A DNA stretch of 64,000 bases, taken from contig OZ245365.1 in the NCBI GenBank assembly GCA_965226495.1, positions 2,112,001 to 2,176,000 on the forward strand. The letters run 5' to 3'. The stretch comes from Candidatus Marinacidobacterales bacterium. Its GTDB lineage: Bacteria; Acidobacteriota; Vicinamibacteria; Marinacidobacterales; DATDRI01. Positions within the stretch are counted from its first letter, which is position 1; each line of letters starts with the position of its first letter. Below the pieces are notes generated by a model. The model was given only the letters and a program-made list of their open reading frames with translations. It was not told the origin of the DNA and searched no databases. This document shows, one piece after another, positions 3,930 through 48,880 of the stretch. The translations under genes were made by a program, and so were the position numbers.

Positions 3930-4589
3930 CTAACGAGAAACACGGATTCCGAACTGGATGTAGCTCGAATTAATGCCAGGATTGACCGTCGACAACGAGT
4001 TGTTGGAGAGGTGCTGGACTCGATACTCGAGTGAATAGGCAAGACGGGGTTTGTGGAACCACATGACGCCGAGCCCGAGCTGAGTCGTGAAGTTGAGATG
4101 GCTCGACTCGGCTGGAATTGGATCTACCGAGACCAGGGTGCCCAATGCGAAGGAGAGAAAAGGCTTCACTTTTGATGCGGGGGCCATGTAGTGGCGAAAC
4201 AAAAGCGTGAAGGTAAAGCCGTAGGTGGTTGGGTCTTGAAACATGAGGAACACCGGGTAAATTTCCCCTCCGACCTCCATATGCCCCTTCATGAAACGCG
4301 GCCCGATCGCGTTGGTGAAGATTCGGCCGTGTTGCCCTCCGAGCACGAGAAACTGTCGGTCCGCTACGCCGCCAAAAACCTCGTGAGCGATGCCGACTCC
4401 GGCCACTAACCCCCATTGTCGGTCGCCTTTTCGAAGTTCGCCCAGCCGTCGATCGTCACCTTTCGTATCTACGTTTGCCGATGCGGAGTCGGGCTCGGTC
4501 GTTTCTTGGGCGGTGCGAGCGTCGACCGTCGCTTGCGAAAAGGCAAGCGCGAGAGACAAACTGGCGATGATCGTTCCAACCCGCGACAT
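3930..4589 (-). CDS. PagL-family lipid A 3-O-deacylase / acyloxyacyl hydrolase beta-barrel
   Basis: Signal peptide; NFTTQLGLG, QHLSNN and NPGIN motifs near the C-terminus. Confidence 0.8.
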   Translation of the reverse strand: MSRVGTIIASLSLALAFSQATVDARTAQETTEPDSASANVDTKGDDRRLGELRKGDRQWGLVAGVGIAHEVFGGVADRQFLVLGGQHGRIFTNAIGPRFMKGHMEVGGEIYPVFLMFQDPTTYGFTFTLLFRHYMAPASKVKPFLSFALGTLVSVDPIPAESSHLNFTTQLGLGVMWFHKPRLAYSLEYRVQHLSNNSLSTVNPGINSSYIQFGIRVSR

Positions 4590-4696
4590 AAGTCGCCGAG
4601 TTTAGCATGGTCACGGAGACCGGGTTCGCAGGGGAAATAGATTTGGCGGCGGGTGCCTGAGTCTTCTATCATGCCGCTCGGAAGGAGTGAGTCCGT

Positions 4697-5737
4697 TTGA
4701 TACGCGGTTTCTTTCACGCCTGGGAAAGGCGTTTGGCGGAGAAGGACGACCCCGAGCGAAGGGTCCTGCCTTTCGCCTGGGGGACTGAGTTTTTGGGAAA
4801 TGGCAAGATCTCGGGAGCCGAAGCGAGAGACTTTCTTCATCGGCATGTCGAGGAGGCGCTTGTCGAGACCGACGCCTATTTTCCGTCGGTGTCCGTTTCG
4901 GACTTCCGTTTGCAGGACTCCGAGCTCACGTTCTCCAGCCCTGTCGAGACGCGATATCAAAAGAACAACGTGGCACGGGGCACTTTCTTCCCGGCATCGC
5001 ATAAGGGGCCGGCGGTGATCGTGCTTCCTCAGTGGAACGCCAAGGGGGGAGCACAGACTGGATTGTGCCGACTCCTGAACCTTTTCGGGTTGACGGCGCT
5101 TCGGTTGACCCTGCCATACCACGGCGCAAGGATGCCCGACGAGCTCACTCGGGCCGACTACATGTTGAGTCCAAACCTGGGGCGCACACTACAGGCGTGC
5201 CGCCAAGCGGTACTAGAAGCGCGCGCAGCGATCACGTGGCTCGAGGAAAAGGGCTATGGCCCCATCGGCATAATCGGAACCAGCCTGGGTTCTGCGATCG
5301 CGTTCATCACAGTCGCACACGACCAACGGCTTCGAACAGGAGTGATGAACCATGTCTCACCGTATTTTGCCGACGTCGTTTGGCGAGGCATCTCCACGCG
5401 GCATGTGCGACAGGGTTTGGAGAGGGGAATCGATCTCGAGGAGCTTCGGCAACTTTGGCTTCCTATCAGTCCCCGAAGCTACTATCAGCGACTTAATGGG
5501 AGCGGACGGAAGGTGATGCTGGTCTACGCCCGTTACGATCTGTCGTTTCCGCCGGACGAGTCAAGACGACTCGTGTCGGACTTCGAGCGTTTGGGCATCC
5601 GCCACCAGAAGCTCGTCTTGCCTTGCGGTCACTACTCGACCGCGAAGTTCCCGTTCAACGTCGTGGACGGCGTTGCCATGGCTCGGTATTTATCTAGGGC
5701 TCTAGAAGACAAAAACCCAGACAGGATGACAGGATAA
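4697..5737 (+). CDS. Alpha/beta hydrolase (ABHD18-like)
   Basis: Nucleophile elbow GTSLG, LPYHGAR, C-terminal PCGHY. Confidence 0.75.
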   Translation: MIRGFFHAWERRLAEKDDPERRVLPFAWGTEFLGNGKISGAEARDFLHRHVEEALVETDAYFPSVSVSDFRLQDSELTFSSPVETRYQKNNVARGTFFPASHKGPAVIVLPQWNAKGGAQTGLCRLLNLFGLTALRLTLPYHGARMPDELTRADYMLSPNLGRTLQACRQAVLEARAAITWLEEKGYGPIGIIGTSLGSAIAFITVAHDQRLRTGVMNHVSPYFADVVWRGISTRHVRQGLERGIDLEELRQLWLPISPRSYYQRLNGSGRKVMLVYARYDLSFPPDESRRLVSDFERLGIRHQKLVLPCGHYSTAKFPFNVVDGVAMARYLSRALEDKNPDRMTG

Positions 5738-41906: not shown

Positions 41907-42185
41907 AAAAACACCTCTCCTGCCGCAAGCCGCTCCTTGTCGTTCAGAGCAGGTCCATATCGTTCGGCTACGGTCTCTGGTTCGCCATCGACCGCCAGTC
42001 GCTCGAACCGGCCGAGGAGAGACTACCACAATGAAACACGGCGAGAAGTAGTGGGGGAGTTTTATTCCGCCGCGGTTTCATTCGGACAGATCTACGGCGT
42101 CTAGGATGGAATCTAGCGATCGTGTTAGCATGAGGCGAATCGCCGTAATCGCCATAGTTGCCTGCCTTCGATTGGACGAAGTGCT

Positions 42186-43136
42186 ATGCGGATCATCGAA
42201 GAAGAGAAGCTGAGAGATTAGATCAAGGCACCCGAGGCATTGGAATCGGCGGAGCGAGCCTTTCGCGCGTTGGCCGAGGGACGCGTGGAGCAACCGCCTC
42301 CGATGGCGCTGGATGTAGCCCCGGTCCGGGGAGAAGTACATGTGAAGGGGGCCTACTTAACGGGATCGAAGTTCTTCGCCATCAAGGTCGCTTCTGGTTT
42401 TTATGGCAACACCGACAAGAATCTACCCACCGGGTCGGGCCTGGTGTTGGTCTTCGACGCGGAGACCGGGTTTCCGCTAGCGCTATTGCGGGACAACGCG
42501 TACCTGACCGATCTGCGAACCGCCGCGGCGGGGGCCCTGGCGGCTCGGCTTCTTGCCCCCACGTCGGTGGCGCGGGTCGCGATGTTGGGAAGCGGGGTTC
42601 AGGCTAGATACCAGCTTCGGGCCATCGCTCGAGTGTGTGAGTTCGAAGGTGTCGCCGTCTGGAGTCCCCATCGCGACCGCGTGGCGTCCTACTGCCAGGA
42701 GATGCGAGGTGTGAGCTCGGGAAAACAGTCGCGCCGGCCGACACTCCGGAGCAGGCCCTGCGGGGGGCGCAATTGGTCGTGACCTGCACCCCGTCCCGGG
42801 AGCCGCTGGTGCAAAGCGCATGGTTGGAGTCCGACGCGACGATCATTGCCGTGGGCTCCGACGGACCCGACAAGCAGGAGCTAACTGCCGAGGTGATTGC
42901 CGGGGCCGACAAGGTTGTTGCCGACCGGTTTTCGCAAATGCGTTCGCTTGGGAGAGATCCACCATGCGGTGGAGGCGGATCTTTTCAAAGAAGAGGACCT
43001 TCACGCCGAGCTCGGTGAGGTCCTGATCGGACGCCAGGCGGGCCGTGTGGGGAAAGAACTGATCGTCTGTGACCTGACCGGCGTAGGGGCGCAGGACGCC
43101 GCCATAGCGGAAGTCGCTTGGGAACGGTCAGGGTGA
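42186..43136 (+). pseudogene. Ornithine cyclodeaminase/mu-crystallin family gene, disrupted
   Basis: LTDLRTAA, GSGVQA, AVGSD, DLTGVGAQDAA; in-frame TAG at 42219-42221, extra GT near 42709-42712, extra A near 42936-42938. Confidence 0.85.
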
Positions 43137-44522
43137 AGCCAGCCCCGCGGCCACTGTGCGCTGCGAGTATCCGTTCTTCTTCGCCTCTTCGAGCGTGTCT
43201 TGGTAGCTGCGATAGATTCGCCGGAGCTCCAATCTGAGCAAGGGCGACGAAACGCCTTTGTCGCGCGCCCGTACCCGTAGCTCACGCTCAGCATGTTCGA
43301 CTCCCGGCCACAATTGGCCCTTCATAGATTCGACCATGTGTTCGTCGTATCCGAAGCCGAATCCCACGATGCTAGGCAACGGTACCTCGTACTTGTCGCT
43401 GAGGCCGAGCGCAGCGAACGGGAAACCATGGGCCCAATCGAGATGGTGTCCAATGAGCATCTTCTTCGGATTCACCGAAATGAGCCCGTGCGGTACGGAG
43501 TTGGCGTCAGGGATATCATAGTGGGCCCGCAACATATCGGTGAGATTCATGGCGGCCTGAATCTGGGCCGGCGTCAGTAGCTCCGCTTCGTTCGCCCCTG
43601 CCTTCCACGCACTTTCGAAACATACGCCTAAGAAGCTGTCGTTCAGATCGAGATAGTAGTTATCGTCGTCGGCCCAGATGGATCGGCCGGCGTGGTACGC
43701 CACGTCGGACTCCTCGACGAGCCGGTAGATGCGACCGAACCGATCGATCAGGTAGTGATAGTTGCCGTGCTTACGTAGCCAGCGAAGGAGGCCGCGGGTG
43801 TTCCGAAGAATGGAGCTGGTCTGCCCAGGCTCGAAGGGAGCGATGTCGCTCTCGCTGGTGTGGTAGACGATGCCGGCTGGCTTGTCCTCGACGAAAGCCG
43901 GGTCGCCGCCGTCGCGGGGGAAGACGAGGTAGCGGCGCTTCTCGGTGCTCACCTTATAGGAGGTGAGTATTCTCAGCCCGTTGCTCCATAGTTCACCTTG
44001 CGGTGCCGCTTCCACCTGCCAAACCTTCTCGGGGGCCATACCCACCCGTGACGTCGGATAGCCGGCCGCAGGCGCGTCGCGGCGCCGTCCGCGTCCGCGG
44101 GGCGAGGGCTGGGTGGAGGTGAAGGGCGGCCACATCTGCGCGACGAGACTTACGCCTTTGCGCGCCGCCCGGTAGCCGCGGGGGCCGAGCGAGTATCCAA
44201 GAGAGGCCACTCCCGCAAGGAGAAGGACCAGGACGACCTTGCGAGCACGGTAGAGGGCCCAACTCGGCTGCGGTAGCGCAGGCACCGGGCCCAGTCGTCG
44301 TTCGTTGCTCAGTTCTTCCAAGGCTTCGAAACAGGCGAGGCGTACCGCGACCGGCTTCAGCAAGCTCGATCTACGGAGAAGCCCAGGCTGCTTTTCGTAC
44401 ACTTCCAGCGTTCGCTGGATGAAGCGGAGCTTGCTTCCCGGGTCCTGGATCGAGGGTGCGACGCTTTCGATGGCCCTTTGGAGCTGTCGTTCCGGGAGAG
44501 GGACCGGCTTGGGTTTTTTCAT
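43128..44522 (-). CDS. Membrane-anchored N-acetylmuramoyl-L-alanine amidase (Amidase_2/PGRP family)
   Basis: Basic N-terminus, TM helix, IVYHTS, HYLIDRFGRIYRLV, AYHAGRSIW, LNDSFLGVCFE, VPHG. Confidence 0.85.
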   Translation of the reverse strand: MKKPKPVPLPERQLQRAIESVAPSIQDPGSKLRFIQRTLEVYEKQPGLLRRSSLLKPVAVRLACFEALEELSNERRLGPVPALPQPSWALYRARKVVLVLLLAGVASLGYSLGPRGYRAARKGVSLVAQMWPPFTSTQPSPRGRGRRRDAPAAGYPTSRVGMAPEKVWQVEAAPQGELWSNGLRILTSYKVSTEKRRYLVFPRDGGDPAFVEDKPAGIVYHTSESDIAPFEPGQTSSILRNTRGLLRWLRKHGNYHYLIDRFGRIYRLVEESDVAYHAGRSIWADDDNYYLDLNDSFLGVCFESAWKAGANEAELLTPAQIQAAMNLTDMLRAHYDIPDANSVPHGLISVNPKKMLIGHHLDWAHGFPFAALGLSDKYEVPLPSIVGFGFGYDEHMVESMKGQLWPGVEHAERELRVRARDKGVSSPLLRLELRRIYRSYQDTLEEAKKNGYSQRTVAAGLASP

Positions 44523-44597
44523 CGCACCCACCCCGCGGCCCCGCCCGGTGTGCGCGACGGGAAGGTGCTCGGTTTCACGAATTACGGATACAGGGCA

Positions 44598-45620
44598 CTA
44601 TGAGTCGTTGACGGCGGCGACGAGGGCTCCAGCGGCGGTAGCCTGCATGGGTCGTGGCGACAATCTCACCTCAGAAACCTCGATCGGACACTTCGATTCT
44701 TTCAGGACGGTCTCGAACTTCTCCCGGAAACCCTTGGGCCGAGCCGTTCCGCCGGCGAGCACAACGGGGACCGCTCGATCCAGCTTGGGAACGTTGGACG
44801 CCTTTCCGAAGGCCTCATTCAAGTTCGTAACCAGGGTTTGAATGACGTCGTCATAGTAGATGTGCAAGGCCTCTTCCACCTTGTCGCTCGGTTTACGGGA
44901 GAGATCGAGGGAAGCCTCCTTGATCATTTTTACCCTGGTAGCGGATTCACCGGTCACTGAGCCCACGCTACGATCGATATAATCGCCCGCCTTGGTTGTG
45001 CTAAAGGAAAGGACGGGAACCGACAAGAACGCCAGGCACACGTTGCACATGCCTCCCCCCGCGGAGACTCCGATTCCGGTGAAGCTCTCCTTTTCGAGCT
45101 CAGAATACACAATGGCTTGCCCTTCGTTGATGCTCTTGACTCGATAGCCCAGCTCTGTGAGAAACTTCTTCAGGAACTCCTCGTGGTAGATCAAGTCGCT
45201 CGGTGCTTCGACCGGTGCGCTGGGCACCGAGAAGCAGATGAGCTCTTCTCTGCTTTTCGGTTTTTTCACTAGCCCCTTGATGATGACCTTGATGAGGGTG
45301 AGCGCCGAAGGCTCGTTCGGGTTGATGAGCCCACGACTCATCGGCCGACGTGTCTCCGCGTTGAAGAGGCTCGCGAATTTTTCCGCGCTATTCCCGTAGA
45401 CGAAGAAGTGGCCGTTCTCCTGGTAGTAGTGCACCTTGTTCTGCAGGAGGATGTTCTCGGTAATACGGGAATAGGGAAGGGGAATGAAAGCGTTGACTTC
45501 GACGGATGCCTGGAGCTCACGTCCGGTGCGGCGGGCGACCAAGATCTTGCTGGTCCCGACATCCAGCCCGATTCGGCCTTCCGCGCTCGGAACGACGCTC
45601 TGGGTTTTTGGGTTCTCCAT
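44598..45620 (-). CDS. Actin-like ATPase, volactin-like (paralog 2)
   Basis: GLDVGTS, ETRRPMSRG, INEG, GVSAGGGMCN, AGDYID, VVLAGGTA, TAAGAL; GAGGA RBS. Confidence 0.85.
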   Translation of the reverse strand: MENPKTQSVVPSAEGRIGLDVGTSKILVARRTGRELQASVEVNAFIPLPYSRITENILLQNKVHYYQENGHFFVYGNSAEKFASLFNAETRRPMSRGLINPNEPSALTLIKVIIKGLVKKPKSREELICFSVPSAPVEAPSDLIYHEEFLKKFLTELGYRVKSINEGQAIVYSELEKESFTGIGVSAGGGMCNVCLAFLSVPVLSFSTTKAGDYIDRSVGSVTGESATRVKMIKEASLDLSRKPSDKVEEALHIYYDDVIQTLVTNLNEAFGKASNVPKLDRAVPVVLAGGTARPKGFREKFETVLKESKCPIEVSEVRLSPRPMQATAAGALVAAVNDS

Positions 45621-45640
45621 GGCTTTGTCCTCTAATTAAT

Positions 45641-46118
45641 GCGAGTGGGCTCCTCGCCCACTCGCTGGCCCTCGCTCTTCGCTCGGGCCTAAAACCACGG
45701 CCGCATTCCCTTGCGCGCCGTATGTTGCCATCGCAATTCCTCGCGGCCGACGGGCCCGTTGCTGCTCGCGGGGCTATCGCCCACGCATTTCCCTCGGGCT
45801 TCCGCAACGGCGTTGGGGCCCCACCCCCAACGCTTGATGCTCCGTCGCCTTCGCGACTGCGCATGGGCTCAAGGCTGCGCTCGGCCTTCCTTCGGCGGGC
45901 GGGTTCCCTTGAGCACTTCTATTCATTGACTCAATTCCTCCTGGCCGATGGCCCTGACGGGCCCGTTCGTGCGCGCGGGCTCCTCATCCACGCGTTTACC
46001 TAATTTGCTCATCATTCATCAATTGCCTGGGGCCCCACCCCCAGGCTTGTCGCTTCGGCGGCTGCGCGCCTGCGCGACGGCTGAAGGCTCCCCGGCCGAT
46101 GGCCCTGACGGGCCCGTT
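45641..46118. repeat. Mosaic of REP-like hairpins (BIME-like) between the actin paralogs
   Basis: Perfect hairpin gcgagtgggc/gcccactcgc; ggccgatggccctgacgggcccgtt twice plus a shorter variant; gggccccacccccaN hairpin unit twice. Confidence 0.8.
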
Positions 46119-47187
46119 AGTTGTCATACATGGCTGCGAGCAGGGCACCCCGAGCCGTGGCTGTCAAGGGATCCTTACCCAAGCGTACACCGGCCAACTG
46201 AATCGGAAGCTTCTGCGCCGTTAGGGCCCGGTCGAAGTTCAGCTTGAACCCTTTCGGGAGGGCGCTGCCTCCCGCCAGTACCACCGGCAGAGGATGGTCC
46301 AGTTTCGGCATGTTCTGGGTTCGGGCAAGCGCCTCCTCGATACCCTCGACCACGGTTGTAATCAAATCCTCGTAATAGATGTGGAGGGCGCCCTCGATCT
46401 TGGTCTTGGGCTTGCGATTGAGATCGAGCCCCTCTTCCTTGATGGCCCGAACCCTCGTCGCGGTCTCGCCACTCACTTTGCCGACCGCCTCGTCGATATC
46501 GTCTCCGCCTTTTCCGATCGCGAAAGAAAACACCGGCACGGAGAGATAGGCGAGCGAGACGTTGGTCAAGCCGCCGCCAAAGCTGATGCCGATGCCGGAG
46601 AAGTTCTCCTTCTCCAGTTCGGAGAAGACCACTGCCAACCCTTCGTTGATGCTCTTGGCCTCGTAGCCCATGCTTTCCAACATTTGTTTTATCAAGGCTT
46701 CATGGTAAACGAGACTCGTACGCCCCTTGAGCGGCTTGCCGGGAACGCTGTAGCAAATCACGCTCCCTTTCGGTTTCTTGGGGCCGAGCAATTTCTTGAC
46801 GATGACCTGAAGAAGTTTTTGGGCGTACGGCTCTGTCGCGTTGACCAGACCGTGGCGCATCGGCCGTCTGGTCTCGGCGTTGAACATGTTTGCGAATTTC
46901 GCTGCGCCGTTGCCGTAAACGACGATCCGACGGCCCGCACGGACGAAATCGATATCGTTCTGGTCCAGAATCTGTTCGGTAAATTTCGAAGGGGGGAGAT
47001 CGATGAACGCGTTCAACTCGCGCGCGGAACGGAATCCCTTTCCGTTCTTGCGTGCGGTCACCACGGTGCTGGTGCCGAGGTCGAGCCCCGCAGCATGGCC
47101 GTTCGAAACTCTGCCATTCGAACTCGAACGGGTCGGAGTTTTTCGACCCTTGGAGGCACTCTTCCTAATGGTTTTTCTCGAAACCAT
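46117..47187 (-). CDS. Actin-like ATPase, volactin-like (paralog 1) with basic N-terminal tail
   Basis: GLDLGTS, FANMFNAETRRPMRHG, INEG, GISFGGGLTN, GGDDID, VVLAGGSA, TARGAL. Confidence 0.85.
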   Translation of the reverse strand: MVSRKTIRKSASKGRKTPTRSSSNGRVSNGHAAGLDLGTSTVVTARKNGKGFRSARELNAFIDLPPSKFTEQILDQNDIDFVRAGRRIVVYGNGAAKFANMFNAETRRPMRHGLVNATEPYAQKLLQVIVKKLLGPKKPKGSVICYSVPGKPLKGRTSLVYHEALIKQMLESMGYEAKSINEGLAVVFSELEKENFSGIGISFGGGLTNVSLAYLSVPVFSFAIGKGGDDIDEAVGKVSGETATRVRAIKEEGLDLNRKPKTKIEGALHIYYEDLITTVVEGIEEALARTQNMPKLDHPLPVVLAGGSALPKGFKLNFDRALTAQKLPIQLAGVRLGKDPLTATARGALLAAMYDN

Positions 47188-47306
47188 GGTCCACCTTCTT
47201 TTCGTGAGCTCCGCAGAGGTCGTTTTAGAGGAACTTCGCCGCCTTGGGCAGTACCCGCCCAGGAATCAGTATGTATAGAAGGTACTATCGGATCAGAAGC
47301 TAGAAA

Positions 47307-47335
47307 ATCGTAGCATCATGCCAACTTCCTGTCAA
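47307..47335 (-). promoter_or_regulatory. Near-consensus sigma70 promoter of the actin-amidase cluster
   Basis: TTGACA-N17-TACGAT with extended TG on the minus strand, about 120 bp upstream of ATG 47187. Confidence 0.6.
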
Positions 47336-47451
47336 CCGGCTCAGAAACTACTTTATTTGTTGGAGTTACAGGCCGATTGCCGTCCTTGTCGCCGGGGTGG
47401 GAAAAAAACTACACGTCAATAAAATGGCTTCGTTTCTATAAGCCTCGCCCT

Positions 47452-47526
47452 TCCGCCTACGCTAAAGCTACGGCGAGACCACGCCTTCGCCGTTGTCGCA
47501 CCGAGCACGTTCCAACGGCGAAGGCG
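47452..47526. repeat. REP-like palindrome plus hairpin
   Basis: tccgcctacgctaaagctacggcg followed by the stem cgccttcgccgttg...caacggcgaaggcg. Confidence 0.6.
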
Positions 47527-47581
47527 GGCACTCCTCATGCTATACTGCCGCGGTTTTTCTAGTTCACGTCGCGCAACTCAG

Positions 47582-48880
47582 ATGGCACCAGAAGCAAAAG
47601 GAACCCCTCTCCACACGAAGATCCTGATCGGCTTCGTGGTCGGCGGTGCGGCGGGCGTGACGGTGAACCAGCTCACCGCGACCGGGACCATTCGCTACTC
47701 GACCCTGGAATGGTTCGTGGCAAACGTGACCGCCCCGATCGGTCAGATCTTTCTGAATCTACTCTTCATGGTCGTCATTCCGATCGTGTTCTGTTCTTTG
47801 TCGCTGGGCGTTGCACGGTTGGGCAATGTGGGGAAGCTCGGCCGCCTTGGCGCGAAGACCTTCGGCTATTTTCTAGTGACCAGCACGATCTCGGTAGCCA
47901 TCGGGGTGACAATGGTGAATATGTTGCGGCCGGGTGAGGGCTTCGACCCGGAGACGCAACGAGCGCTCATGGAAAAATTCGGAGGACAAGCCGAGCAACG
48001 AGCAACCATTGCCGGAGACGGCAAGTTTTGGCCCGACATGTTAGTGGGCATGGTGAGTCGCAACCCGATACGTGACGCCGCCGAGACCCAAATGCTACCG
48101 ATCATTGTTTTCGCAATCCTCTTCGGCTTGGCACTCACGATGATTCCTCGCGAGCGCGCCGAGCCAACGATCAAAGTGCTCGATGGGATCGGAGATGCGA
48201 TGGTTGTCATCGTCGGGTTCGCCATGCGGATCGCCCCTTTTGCCGTGCCGGCGCTAATCTTCGATGTTACGGCCCTTTTCGGCTGGGAGATTCTCAGGCA
48301 ACTCTCTTTTTACGTCATCATTGTTTTGGTTGGCTATCTCCTGCATCTATTCGGCACGTTCTCGGTGCTGCTGCGAGTCTTCGCCCGTTATTCGCCCGGG
48401 CGGTTTTTCAAGAAGATGATTCCGGTCATGGTTACTGCGTTTTCCACGAGTTCCTCGAACGCCACGCTGCCGACGACGATCAAGACCAGCGAGGAAGAGT
48501 TAGGTGTGCCTTCGGAGATCGCAGGCTTTGTTCTCCCTCTCGGTGCAACGATCAACATGAATGGGAGCTCCTTGTTCGCGAGCGTGGTCGTACTCTTTGT
48601 CGCTCAGGTGTTCGGGGTCGAGTTGTCTCTGGGGACGCAGTTCTTGGTGGTCTTGCTCTCCGTGTTCACGGCGGTGGGGGCGGCGGGGGTGCCCGGTGGA
48701 GCGATTCCCTTGTTGGTCGTGGTCTTGGAAATGGTTGGCGTTCCGGGCGAGGGCATAGCCATCATCATCGGGGTGGATCGTATTCTAGACATGGGGCGCA
48801 CGGTGGTGAACGTTACGGGTGACGCCGCCGCGGCGTGCTTCATTGCGAGCAGCGAAGGTTATCCCTTGAAGATCGGCTAG
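47582..48880 (+). CDS. Dicarboxylate/amino acid:cation symporter (DAACS, GltP-like)
   Basis: AFSTSSSNATLP, PLGATINMNG, GVDRILDMGRTVVNVTGD. Confidence 0.95.
   Translation: MAPEAKGTPLHTKILIGFVVGGAAGVTVNQLTATGTIRYSTLEWFVANVTAPIGQIFLNLLFMVVIPIVFCSLSLGVARLGNVGKLGRLGAKTFGYFLVTSTISVAIGVTMVNMLRPGEGFDPETQRALMEKFGGQAEQRATIAGDGKFWPDMLVGMVSRNPIRDAAETQMLPIIVFAILFGLALTMIPRERAEPTIKVLDGIGDAMVVIVGFAMRIAPFAVPALIFDVTALFGWEILRQLSFYVIIVLVGYLLHLFGTFSVLLRVFARYSPGRFFKKMIPVMVTAFSTSSSNATLPTTIKTSEEELGVPSEIAGFVLPLGATINMNGSSLFASVVVLFVAQVFGVELSLGTQFLVVLLSVFTAVGAAGVPGGAIPLLVVVLEMVGVPGEGIAIIIGVDRILDMGRTVVNVTGDAAAACFIASSEGYPLKIG

Follow-up and report, generated by a model that had tools for sequence, protein, structure and literature searches.

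The list of modules in which a cytoskeletal polymer is tied to a wall hydrolase is short. In the MreB-RodZ and MreBH-LytE systems, an actin-like filament is connected to wall enzymes via membrane-spanning partners. The bactofilin BacA of Hyphomonas neptunium and Rhodospirillum rubrum is described as binding the cytoplasmic N-terminal tail of the bitopic M23 peptidase LmdC and recruiting it to defined sites, and the two genes are reported to be neighbours in many species (PMC10945521). Volactin (VolA, HVO_2015) of the archaeon Haloferax volcanii is described as an actin forming dynamic filaments that contact the membrane by their tips (bioRxiv 10.1101/2023.03.05.531186). Here we consider a locus of a Candidatus Marinacidobacterales bacterium (Acidobacteriota; assembly GCA_965226495.1, contig OZ245365.1, positions 2,112,001 to 2,176,000, a stretch of 64,000 nucleotides that we call the window and within which all positions are counted unless stated otherwise), in which two tandem genes for volactin-family actins, volA1 and volA2, are followed by a gene for a membrane-anchored Amidase_2 protein. 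Our preferred reading, to which we give a probability of roughly 0.55, is that a volactin filament would bind the N-terminal domain of the amidase and thereby set where or when the wall is cut, in the manner of the bactofilin and LmdC.

The locus resembles BacA-LmdC in that a polymer gene adjoins the gene for a bitopic hydrolase with a cytoplasmic N-terminal element, a membrane helix and periplasmic catalysis, as predicted here and as reported for LmdC, and in that this neighbourhood is kept in many species. It differs in its polymer, which would be an actin-fold ATPase and not a nucleotide-independent beta-helical bactofilin, in its hydrolase, predicted to be an Amidase_2 enzyme that removes whole stem peptides and not an M23 endopeptidase, and in its cytoplasmic element, predicted to be a helical domain of about 76 residues where LmdC has a beta-hairpin. 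Binding has been demonstrated for BacA and LmdC, whereas the volactin-amidase pair is known from its genes. With VolA of H. volcanii the two actins share the Pfam family PF25216 over its full length, a likeness seen through the profile hidden Markov model (HMM), and the serine at phosphate-2. The present host, however, is a peptidoglycan bacterium with an MreB of its own, it has two tandem paralogues instead of one gene, and these are linked to a wall amidase that would be useless to a murein-free archaeon. Unlike the actins of MreB-RodZ and MreBH-LytE, VolA1 and VolA2 fail the MreB models, and the N-terminal domain of the amidase has no significant fold match in the PDB.

In the literature searched, a coverage with many subscription papers and supplements outside it, we met no account of volactins in bacteria or of an actin gene paired with an amidase gene. 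The sequence-only reading (an earlier interpretation made from the letters of the DNA) had also regarded the pairing as one not known to be described. Bacterial homologues are not mentioned in the volactin paper's main text or in passages of its preprint (bioRxiv 10.1101/2023.03.05.531186), although Supplementary Note 5 may mention them.

The module lies wholly on the minus strand and reads, 5' to 3', as a promoter-like site, volA1, a spacer, volA2, a second spacer and the Amidase_2 gene:

47307..47335, minus strand: candidate sigma-70-like promoter, TTGACA-N17-TACGAT with a TG-extended -10, about 120 nucleotides (nt) upstream of volA1, read in the sequence
46117..47187, minus strand: volA1, volactin-family actin-like ATPase of 356 amino acids (PF25216, 284.8 bits)
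45621..46116, no strand: 496-nt spacer with about 2.5 copies of a dispersed GC-rich repeat (direct repeats at a spacing of about 200 nt)
44598..45620, minus strand: volA2, volactin-family actin-like ATPase of 340 amino acids, without the basic tail of volA1 (PF25216, 271.2 bits)
44523..44597, minus strand: 75-nt spacer between volA2 and the amidase gene, read in the sequence
43128..44522, minus strand: amidase gene, 464 amino acids from its ATG (PF01510, 59.3 bits)
44295..44522, minus strand: amidase residues 1-76, conserved helical N-domain, predicted to be cytoplasmic, in which the motif DPxxKLRF(I/L) is found (alignments of 44 and of 28 sequences)
44181..44237, minus strand: amidase residues 96-114, predicted single membrane helix serving as signal anchor (hydrophobic 19-mer)
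43323..44018, minus strand: amidase residues 169-400, zinc amidase domain (Amidase_2) of the AmiD/AmpD/AmpDh2 type (PF01510 and fold)

Family assignment of the actins

By the HMM, VolA1 and VolA2 belong to the volactin family: they match PF25216, at the scores listed above, over model positions 2-321 and 3-321 of 321, respectively, with a cut-off of 35 bits. Among 14 control genomes, only Haloferax volcanii had a match to this model above the cut-off. The models of other actins stay below theirs, MreB_Mbl (PF06723) giving 26.8 bits against 27 for VolA1 and no match for VolA2, TIGR00904 (mreB) 37.2 bits against 365.75, the MamK model 22-30 bits against 400, and the salactin models 17-22 bits against 27.1 (Pfam) and 400 (NCBIfam). 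No ParM-type family matched at E <= 0.1 among the profile results for the two proteins. MreB is the nearest protein of solved structure in a sequence comparison (E 4.5e-4), and the match is confined to residues 102-235, one third of the protein. We rejected an MreB paralogue on the PF06723 and TIGR00904 scores and on the length of the MreB branch (4.45) in the 185-row tree described below, and a ParM-type partition system on the lack of such a match and of any parR-like gene nearby.

The actin-fold motifs are read in both proteins, as GLDLGTS in VolA1 and GLDVGTS in VolA2, FANMFNAETRRPM and FASLFNAETRRPM, SINEG, GIGISFGGG and GIGVSAGGG, ALHIYY, and VVLAGG. Across 47 family members, residues G38, T39, G204, G206 and G306 never vary and D36, S202 and G307 hardly do, and VolA1 and VolA2 keep all of them. 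In an alignment with the MreB of the same genome, phosphate-1 is common to both (GLDLGTS and AIDLGTA), as is the adenosine motif, whereas at phosphate-2 a serine stands in VolA1 and VolA2 at the position of an aspartate in MreB. The sequence-only reading had called these proteins volactin-like on the strength of such motifs and of the serine, had set them apart from MreB and MamK, and had seen no mreCD, par or mam context; each point is borne out, and none of those genes is found among the genes flanking the module.

A canonical MreB gene is present elsewhere in the genome (C1:1630969, 487.5 bits). The genome also holds two Amidase_3 (AmiC-type) genes and five SPOR genes, and the module therefore adds to the standard machinery and does not replace it. 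VolA1 has, in addition, an N-terminal tail of about 30 residues rich in K, R, S, T and P, which is basic in all 12 rows that cover it out of 13, the row left out (L059) beginning at a contig end.

Linkage and co-occurrence of actins and amidase

To place the gene pair in a wider context, we surveyed the best 80 volactin loci, one genome per species. In 75 of these an amidase homologue adjoins the volactin gene on the same strand, a conservative count that rises to 76 if L132 is included, a locus re-read as vol-ami-vol with an amidase match at 4112-4948 of that locus. Among the loci without a match, L107 and L121 end at the expected side, where L128 extends for only 1193 nt. The genes are arranged in four ways: volA1-volA2-ami in 12 loci, ami-vol in the majority, vol-ami in L108, L110, L112, L116 and L124, and vol-ami-vol in L132. 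Within the taxonomic order to which the genome belongs, the amidase gene comes directly after volA2 in every genome with intact actins. An even sample of 300 other Acidobacteriota genomes gave a similar picture: the amidase subfamily (E <= 1e-15) is present in eight, all of them among the nine genomes with a volactin and in all cases adjacent to it, and in none of the 291 volactin-free genomes. A linkage that survives rearrangement, combined with strict co-occurrence, is the strongest evidence that the actins and the amidase work together. A linkage not conserved in other genomes had been named beforehand as the outcome that would tell against the pairing, and it did not occur.

Six loci (L108, L110, L112, L116, L124 and L128) come from records with titles naming Desulfobacterales or Deltaproteobacteria. 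The three of these in our tree (L108, L116 and L124) form a clade of their own, and dsrA scored over its cut-off in two of three checked genomes of Desulfobacterales-titled loci, which agrees with the titles and is no proof of them. On the basis of these loci the module may exist outside the Acidobacteriota, with the reservation that titles are unreliable; L130, for example, is titled Clostridia and is the same contig as G261:C8, which is placed in the Acidobacteriota.

The amidase protein

The amidase matches Amidase_2 over residues 219-362 (cut-off 26 bits), and its nearest solved relatives by sequence are AmiD (2bh7, E 5e-6), then AmpDh3 and AmpDh2. An alternative GTG start at 44531 would yield 467 amino acids. 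In the AlphaFold model made from 44 homologues (predicted local distance difference test score, pLDDT, 87.7), four helices make up the N-domain (12-24, 28-44, 47-51 and 56-73, pLDDT about 90). Residues 94-130 form a long helix and 131-151 a disordered linker, the amidase domain starts at 169, and further helices lie at 406-449; these conserved C-terminal helices run from the domain to the stop at 43128. The top Foldseek matches of the model are AmpD (2y2b, E 1.8e-7), AmiD (2bh7, E 9.7e-7), AmpDh2 and AmpDh3, phage amidases including T7 lysozyme, and peptidoglycan recognition proteins.

We inspected an alignment of 44 sequences (that of the window, 41 of 68 usable loci and two phylum loci, one row having been dropped for a stop codon). 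H221, H277, E303, H345, H360 and D362 are invariant in all 44, and H345 and E303 align with a histidine and a glutamate of AmiD. Several of these residues, among them H221, E303, H345 and D362, would be metal ligands or catalytic residues in this family, and the invariance of all six argues for a working enzyme. In fold, in sequence and in the conserved His/His/Asp and Glu residues, the protein resembles AmiD, AmpDh2, AmpDh3 and AmpD. Of these, AmiD and AmpDh2 are lipoproteins and AmpD is soluble, whereas the subfamily described here has the N-domain and a predicted signal anchor, and its catalytic core is bordered by conserved extensions, W168-R184 ahead of it and F367-R430 behind it. In the 300-genome sample, the subfamily is found only in volactin-bearing genomes.

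In the N-terminal region, P28 and L32 of the motif DPxxKLRF(I/L) are invariant while the rest diverges fast, and the motif recurs in lineages with only 31-39% overall identity. All 44 homologues have a hydrophobic 19-mer between this motif and the amidase domain, at residues 96-114 of the window's protein, in accord with the membrane anchor that the sequence-only reading had proposed. Lysines and arginines average 3.36 on the N-terminal side of this helix and 1.80 on the C-terminal side, the N-terminal count being the higher in 31 and the lower in 6 of the 44 sequences. This charge bias, and the fact that the protein has no signal peptide, make it probable that the N-domain is cytoplasmic and the amidase domain periplasmic.

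None of the 69 PDB matches listed for the N-domain (model pLDDT 74.8) reached E <= 0.001, and we therefore claim no RodZ-like or ParR-like resemblance for it. A word-based search with residues 1-130 returned only seven close relatives, all with PF01510, and no alternative architectures among them. Complex predictions with VolA1, VolA2 and amidase residues 1-95 scored 0.38, 0.34 and 0.33, while controls with the amidase replaced scored 0.00 and 0.00; a control with an unrelated protein in place of VolA1 scored 0.52, and the complex score is therefore not specific to the full set and speaks neither for nor against binding.

Paralogues and distribution of the family

In the order to which the genome belongs, PF25216 matches 20 of 41 genomes (G000 included), usually as two tandem copies (6 of 7 genomes of family f1, 13 of 17 of f2 and none of 16 of f3), and the module is present in 6 of 7, 12-13 of 17 and none of 16, respectively; these tallies include one unpublished genome, G007, on which no claim rests alone. 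Fragmented genes in G004, G005, G010 and G022 were not counted as pseudogenes, as they could reflect either decay or indel errors of long reads; the clear cases of disruption are only G002 and G026, with large deletions, and G003, with a transposase insertion. The nine volactins in the sample of 300 other Acidobacteriota genomes are always single copy, and volA2, against which these single-copy forms have the higher scores, is closer to them than volA1 is.

We built a tree of 185 rows, consisting of 13 volA1, 12 volA2, 37 single-copy volactins, 122 representative domains and the MreB of the genome; only representative domains covering at least 280 profile positions were used, and shorter domains and 36 of 67 single-copy loci were left out. 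FastTree recovered a volA1 clade (support 100) and a volA2 clade (100) as sisters (96), and a quick IQ-TREE run of 53 rows gave the same two clades (100 each) with an SH-like approximate likelihood ratio test value of 93 for the sister relationship. Two supported sister clades point to a single duplication at the base of the order, with both copies kept since, and within each clade the paralogue tree follows the genome families. The retention of both paralogues fits a filament that would be built from both.

The family is large in bacteria: when 1.84 billion cluster representatives were searched exhaustively, 1150 matched at E <= 1e-3 and 351 at E <= 1e-30. Named members of the family come from the Acidobacteriota, Planctomycetota, Minisyncoccales and Euryarchaeota, organism names having been found for 5 of the 20 representative clusters looked up (Planctomycetota twice, and Euryarchaeota, Minisyncoccales and Acidobacteriota). 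There was no haloarchaeon among these five named clusters, and a composition screen for haloarchaeal-like acidic proteins gave no usable candidate. The only archaeal-named cluster among the top 150 representatives was P0186, at an identity of just 33%.

Ten long representatives were scanned for additional domains, which revealed HU in one, ParB helix-turn-helix (ParB-HTH) in two, a receiver in one, Wzz/GNVR/ParA-like parts in one and a double volactin in one. Multi-part volactin proteins seen in this work are P0121, P0122, P0132 (the receiver fusion), P0153, P0164, P0170, and the HU fusions at L053 and L054; the Wzz/GNVR/ParA-like protein is from the Planctomycetota. Fused double volactins of about 700-750 amino acids occur in other lineages. 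The impression is of a family of modular scaffolds employed in several contexts. In the Atlas, one cluster of 69 proteins with a Volactin domain is labelled most often with the phylum Uroviricota, a hint that some members are encoded by phages.

Neighbouring genes in sister lineages

Neighbours were counted from clustered open reading frames of 68 single-copy loci. In 30 of these, the next gene on the upstream side of the amidase gene is for a conserved protein with a zinc ribbon at its N-terminus, a membrane helix and a SPOR domain at its C-terminus. These 30 loci, of Blastocatellia type, fall within L072-L135 (for example L098, 2050-3402), and the protein has a zinc ribbon CPxCQxENQA...VCARCAT and a long low-complexity linker ahead of the membrane helix. 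SPOR domains are described as binding glycan strands that amidases have stripped of peptides (PMC6895207), and the upstream SPOR gene therefore ties the amidase to the chemistry of the sacculus.

Other genes recur less often. A cluster of TPR-AAA ATPases is present in 19 of the 68 loci, a histidine kinase in 15 and a sigma-54 response regulator in 16. The TPR protein, of about 805 amino acids with an AAA/STAND-like ATPase part (L066-L101, for example L090, 6178-8595), is co-oriented in 16 of its 19 loci, mostly directly downstream of the volactin gene and in loci of Vicinamibacteria type. Fusions of HU (PF00216) to volactin occur in 6 of the 68, next to the amidase (as at L053 and L054), and many single-copy volactins have acidic N-terminal tails. 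The window itself has no SPOR, TPR-AAA ATPase, kinase, response-regulator or HU-fusion gene.

Proposed function and alternatives

If the actins and the amidase do work together, VolA1 and VolA2 would probably co-assemble into a cytoplasmic filament, and the amidase would span the inner membrane once, with its N-domain inside and its amidase domain in the periplasm. The filament would bind the N-domain, which carries DPxxKLRF, and in this way fix where or when the amidase acts, and the enzyme would strip stem peptides from the peptidoglycan to leave local patches of denuded glycan. In sister lineages the SPOR protein encoded upstream of the amidase would be a reader of that denuded glycan. Because the module comes on top of MreB and AmiC-type amidases, it probably serves a specialised task of local remodelling, for example in separation, at a pole or in shape. 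Of this picture, the family membership, the protein architecture, the conserved catalytic residues, the gene linkage and the phyletic co-occurrence are observed, and polymerisation, binding, topology, enzyme activity and cellular role are inferred. A broader proposal, which we put forward tentatively and at somewhat less than even odds, is that volactins are a widespread, unstudied bacterial cytoskeleton; in the Acidobacteriota, an ATP-driven (and here probably heteropolymeric) filament would grip the amidase N-domain and pattern the making of denuded glycan in the periplasm, and a SPOR protein, encoded in the same cluster in sister lineages, would read the pattern, making a self-contained organiser-writer-reader system for local wall remodelling that is independent of MreB and FtsZ.

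Several observations weigh against a filament that directs the amidase. The linkage has exceptions: no such amidase lies in the complete flanks of L088, which is a true miss, and one volactin genome of the phylum sample (G238) likewise has none. Distant volactins carry HU, ParB-HTH, receiver or Wzz/BY-kinase-like parts, and the family as a whole is not tied to amidases. The module is also dispensable: it was not found in G001, which is of the same genus, G002 has remnants of all three genes, G026 has an amidase remnant alone, and in G003 the module is split by a transposase. The SPOR gene of the sister lineages is not in the window, the nearest of the genome's five SPOR genes lying about 80 kb away. 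For the window's own amidase the charges favour neither orientation clearly, with three lysines or arginines before the helix and four after it. Lastly, because of the structured 496-nt spacer described below, volA1 may be expressed independently of volA2 and the amidase gene in this genome.

Where the module is lost (G002, G026 and G003), it decays as a unit. The insertion in G003, a genome of the same family, is a Mutator-family transposase (PF00872, 260.7 bits; L040, 8591-9904) between volA2 and the fragments of the amidase gene.

The main rival, which we regard as unlikely, would have the amidase-like protein act from the outside in, tying the filament ends to the peptidoglycan; the job of the filament would then be cytoplasmic, concerned with the nucleoid or some cargo, and hydrolysis would be secondary. 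The HU-volactin fusions beside the amidase hint at this, as do the family members fused to ParB-HTH, the basic K/R/S/T/P tail of VolA1, which could bind DNA, and the tip anchoring and ParM-like behaviour described for the filaments of H. volcanii (bioRxiv 10.1101/2023.03.05.531186). The HU fusions are a minority (6 of 68), however, many single-copy forms have acidic N-terminal tails instead, and residues invariant in 44 sequences together with a SPOR neighbour in 30 of 68 loci point to real amidase chemistry.

We see only a small chance that the system controls an autolysin in time and not in space, with filament or monomeric actin sequestering or gating the amidase so as to govern when it acts (in stress, development or lysis). 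The same linkage and co-occurrence data apply to this idea, a receiver-volactin fusion exists (P0132), and in some lineages the pair has a regulator beside it, namely the histidine kinase in 15, the sigma-54 response regulator in 16 or the TPR-AAA ATPase in 19 of the 68 loci; yet none of these regulators is in the window, and sequence data cannot by themselves separate temporal from spatial control.

An inverted topology seems highly improbable. In that case the amidase domain would be cytoplasmic and AmpD-like, serving membrane-tethered recycling of muropeptides, and the actin genes would be adjacent for some other reason. AmpD is indeed the top fold match, and the charges around the helix of the window's own protein allow either orientation, but the bias across the family favours the N-terminus inside (31 against 6 of 44), the best sequence matches are the periplasmic AmiD, AmpDh2 and AmpDh3, the SPOR neighbour points to the sacculus, and export of a folded domain of 76 residues that lacks a signal peptide is unlikely. 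We set a cytoplasmic AmpD aside on the charge bias, the sequence matches and the SPOR neighbour.

Scarcely credible, finally, is a mobile-element cassette of a ParM-like actin and a phage-type endolysin left by a prophage or plasmid, as might be suggested by the frequency of Amidase_2 in endolysins, by T7 lysozyme and phage lysins among the fold matches and by the Atlas cluster labelled mostly Uroviricota, since the flanks are chromosomal housekeeping genes (syntenic on the upstream side), the paralogue trees track the genome families, the cytoplasmic domain and membrane anchor are unlike the layout of an endolysin, no phage, plasmid or parR-like gene is nearby, and the GC content is flat; we rejected a prophage lysis cassette on the flanks, the protein layout and the lack of phage genes nearby.

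Promoter, spacers and surroundings of the module

The three co-oriented genes described by the sequence-only reading, two actins and an Amidase_2 protein, were all found on the minus strand, and the gap that it had put at about 75 bp measures 75 nt; the equivalent spacer is 5-126 nt long in 10 relatives. The promoter that it had read, TTGACA-N17-TACGAT, is likewise present (47335-47307, minus strand). This candidate matches the consensus at 10 of 12 positions, with a TG before the -10, and a site scan found it to be the sole sigma-70-like site in 42900-47600. Because 1.1 such sites are expected by chance in that interval, the candidate fits by its position only. The same scan found no terminator-like site on the minus strand within the module.

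The gap between volA1 and volA2 is 496 nt here and 22-56 nt in seven intact relatives, and thus the actin genes of the window are not close-packed. The repeat that fills it gives 146 blastn high-scoring pairs across the 6.3-Mb genome, with up to 71 hits per 20-nt bin, in units of about 90-200 nt with GGGGCCCC-type palindromes; a further copy lies at 689-787 of the window. Folded as RNA, the spacer would be strongly structured (z-score -5.1), and an Rfam search of 42000-48000, which includes it, gave no match. The spacer is a secondary insertion, and it may affect the relative expression of the module's genes.

Over 42000-48000 the sequence agrees in every letter with DNA contigs from two other public runs, and the gene sequences are therefore independent of this one assembly. 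Near-identical DNA (at least 80% of sampled words of 43128-47340) turns up in 18 public runs belonging to 7 studies, and the organism or close strains of it thus recur across samples. In two metatranscriptome runs of one study, short contigs are identical or near-identical to parts of volA2 (44739-45146 and 45272-45459), and contigs also lie on volA1 (46090-46278, 46641-46801, 47054-47223 and 47100-47269); contigs from RNA libraries do not prove transcription of these genes. The same runs gave no contig on the amidase gene or across either spacer, which is a sign neither of silence nor of separate transcripts.

The module is flanked by genes for an SDF symporter, a MobA-like protein, MscS and DUF481, and the upstream side is syntenic across the order. 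Over this region the GC content stays flat. On the plus strand, at 42240-43136, an ornithine cyclodeaminase/mu-crystallin gene (PF02423) is broken over three frames (42240-42782, 42773-43018 and 42897-43136), and its 3' end overlaps the stop region of the amidase gene. These frameshifts are real and no slip of assembly, because the DNA contigs of the two other runs show the same sequence without indels.

Implications

In the literature that we found, volactin has so far been treated only in the murein-free Haloferax volcanii; here it is found in bacteria with a peptidoglycan wall. The pairing of actin and amidase suggests a bacterial cytoskeleton that places or controls a wall-cutting enzyme, and it would add an actin-based example to the few known modules of cytoskeleton and hydrolase. 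For the Acidobacteriota, abundant yet poorly studied, it offers a first lead into cell biology. It also gives volactin a clear partner and thus a handle on what its filaments attach to, with a predicted binding element of about 76 residues in which two positions are invariant. If the broader proposal is true, it would suggest that the tip anchoring of archaeal volactin has a bacterial counterpart with an identifiable anchor protein.

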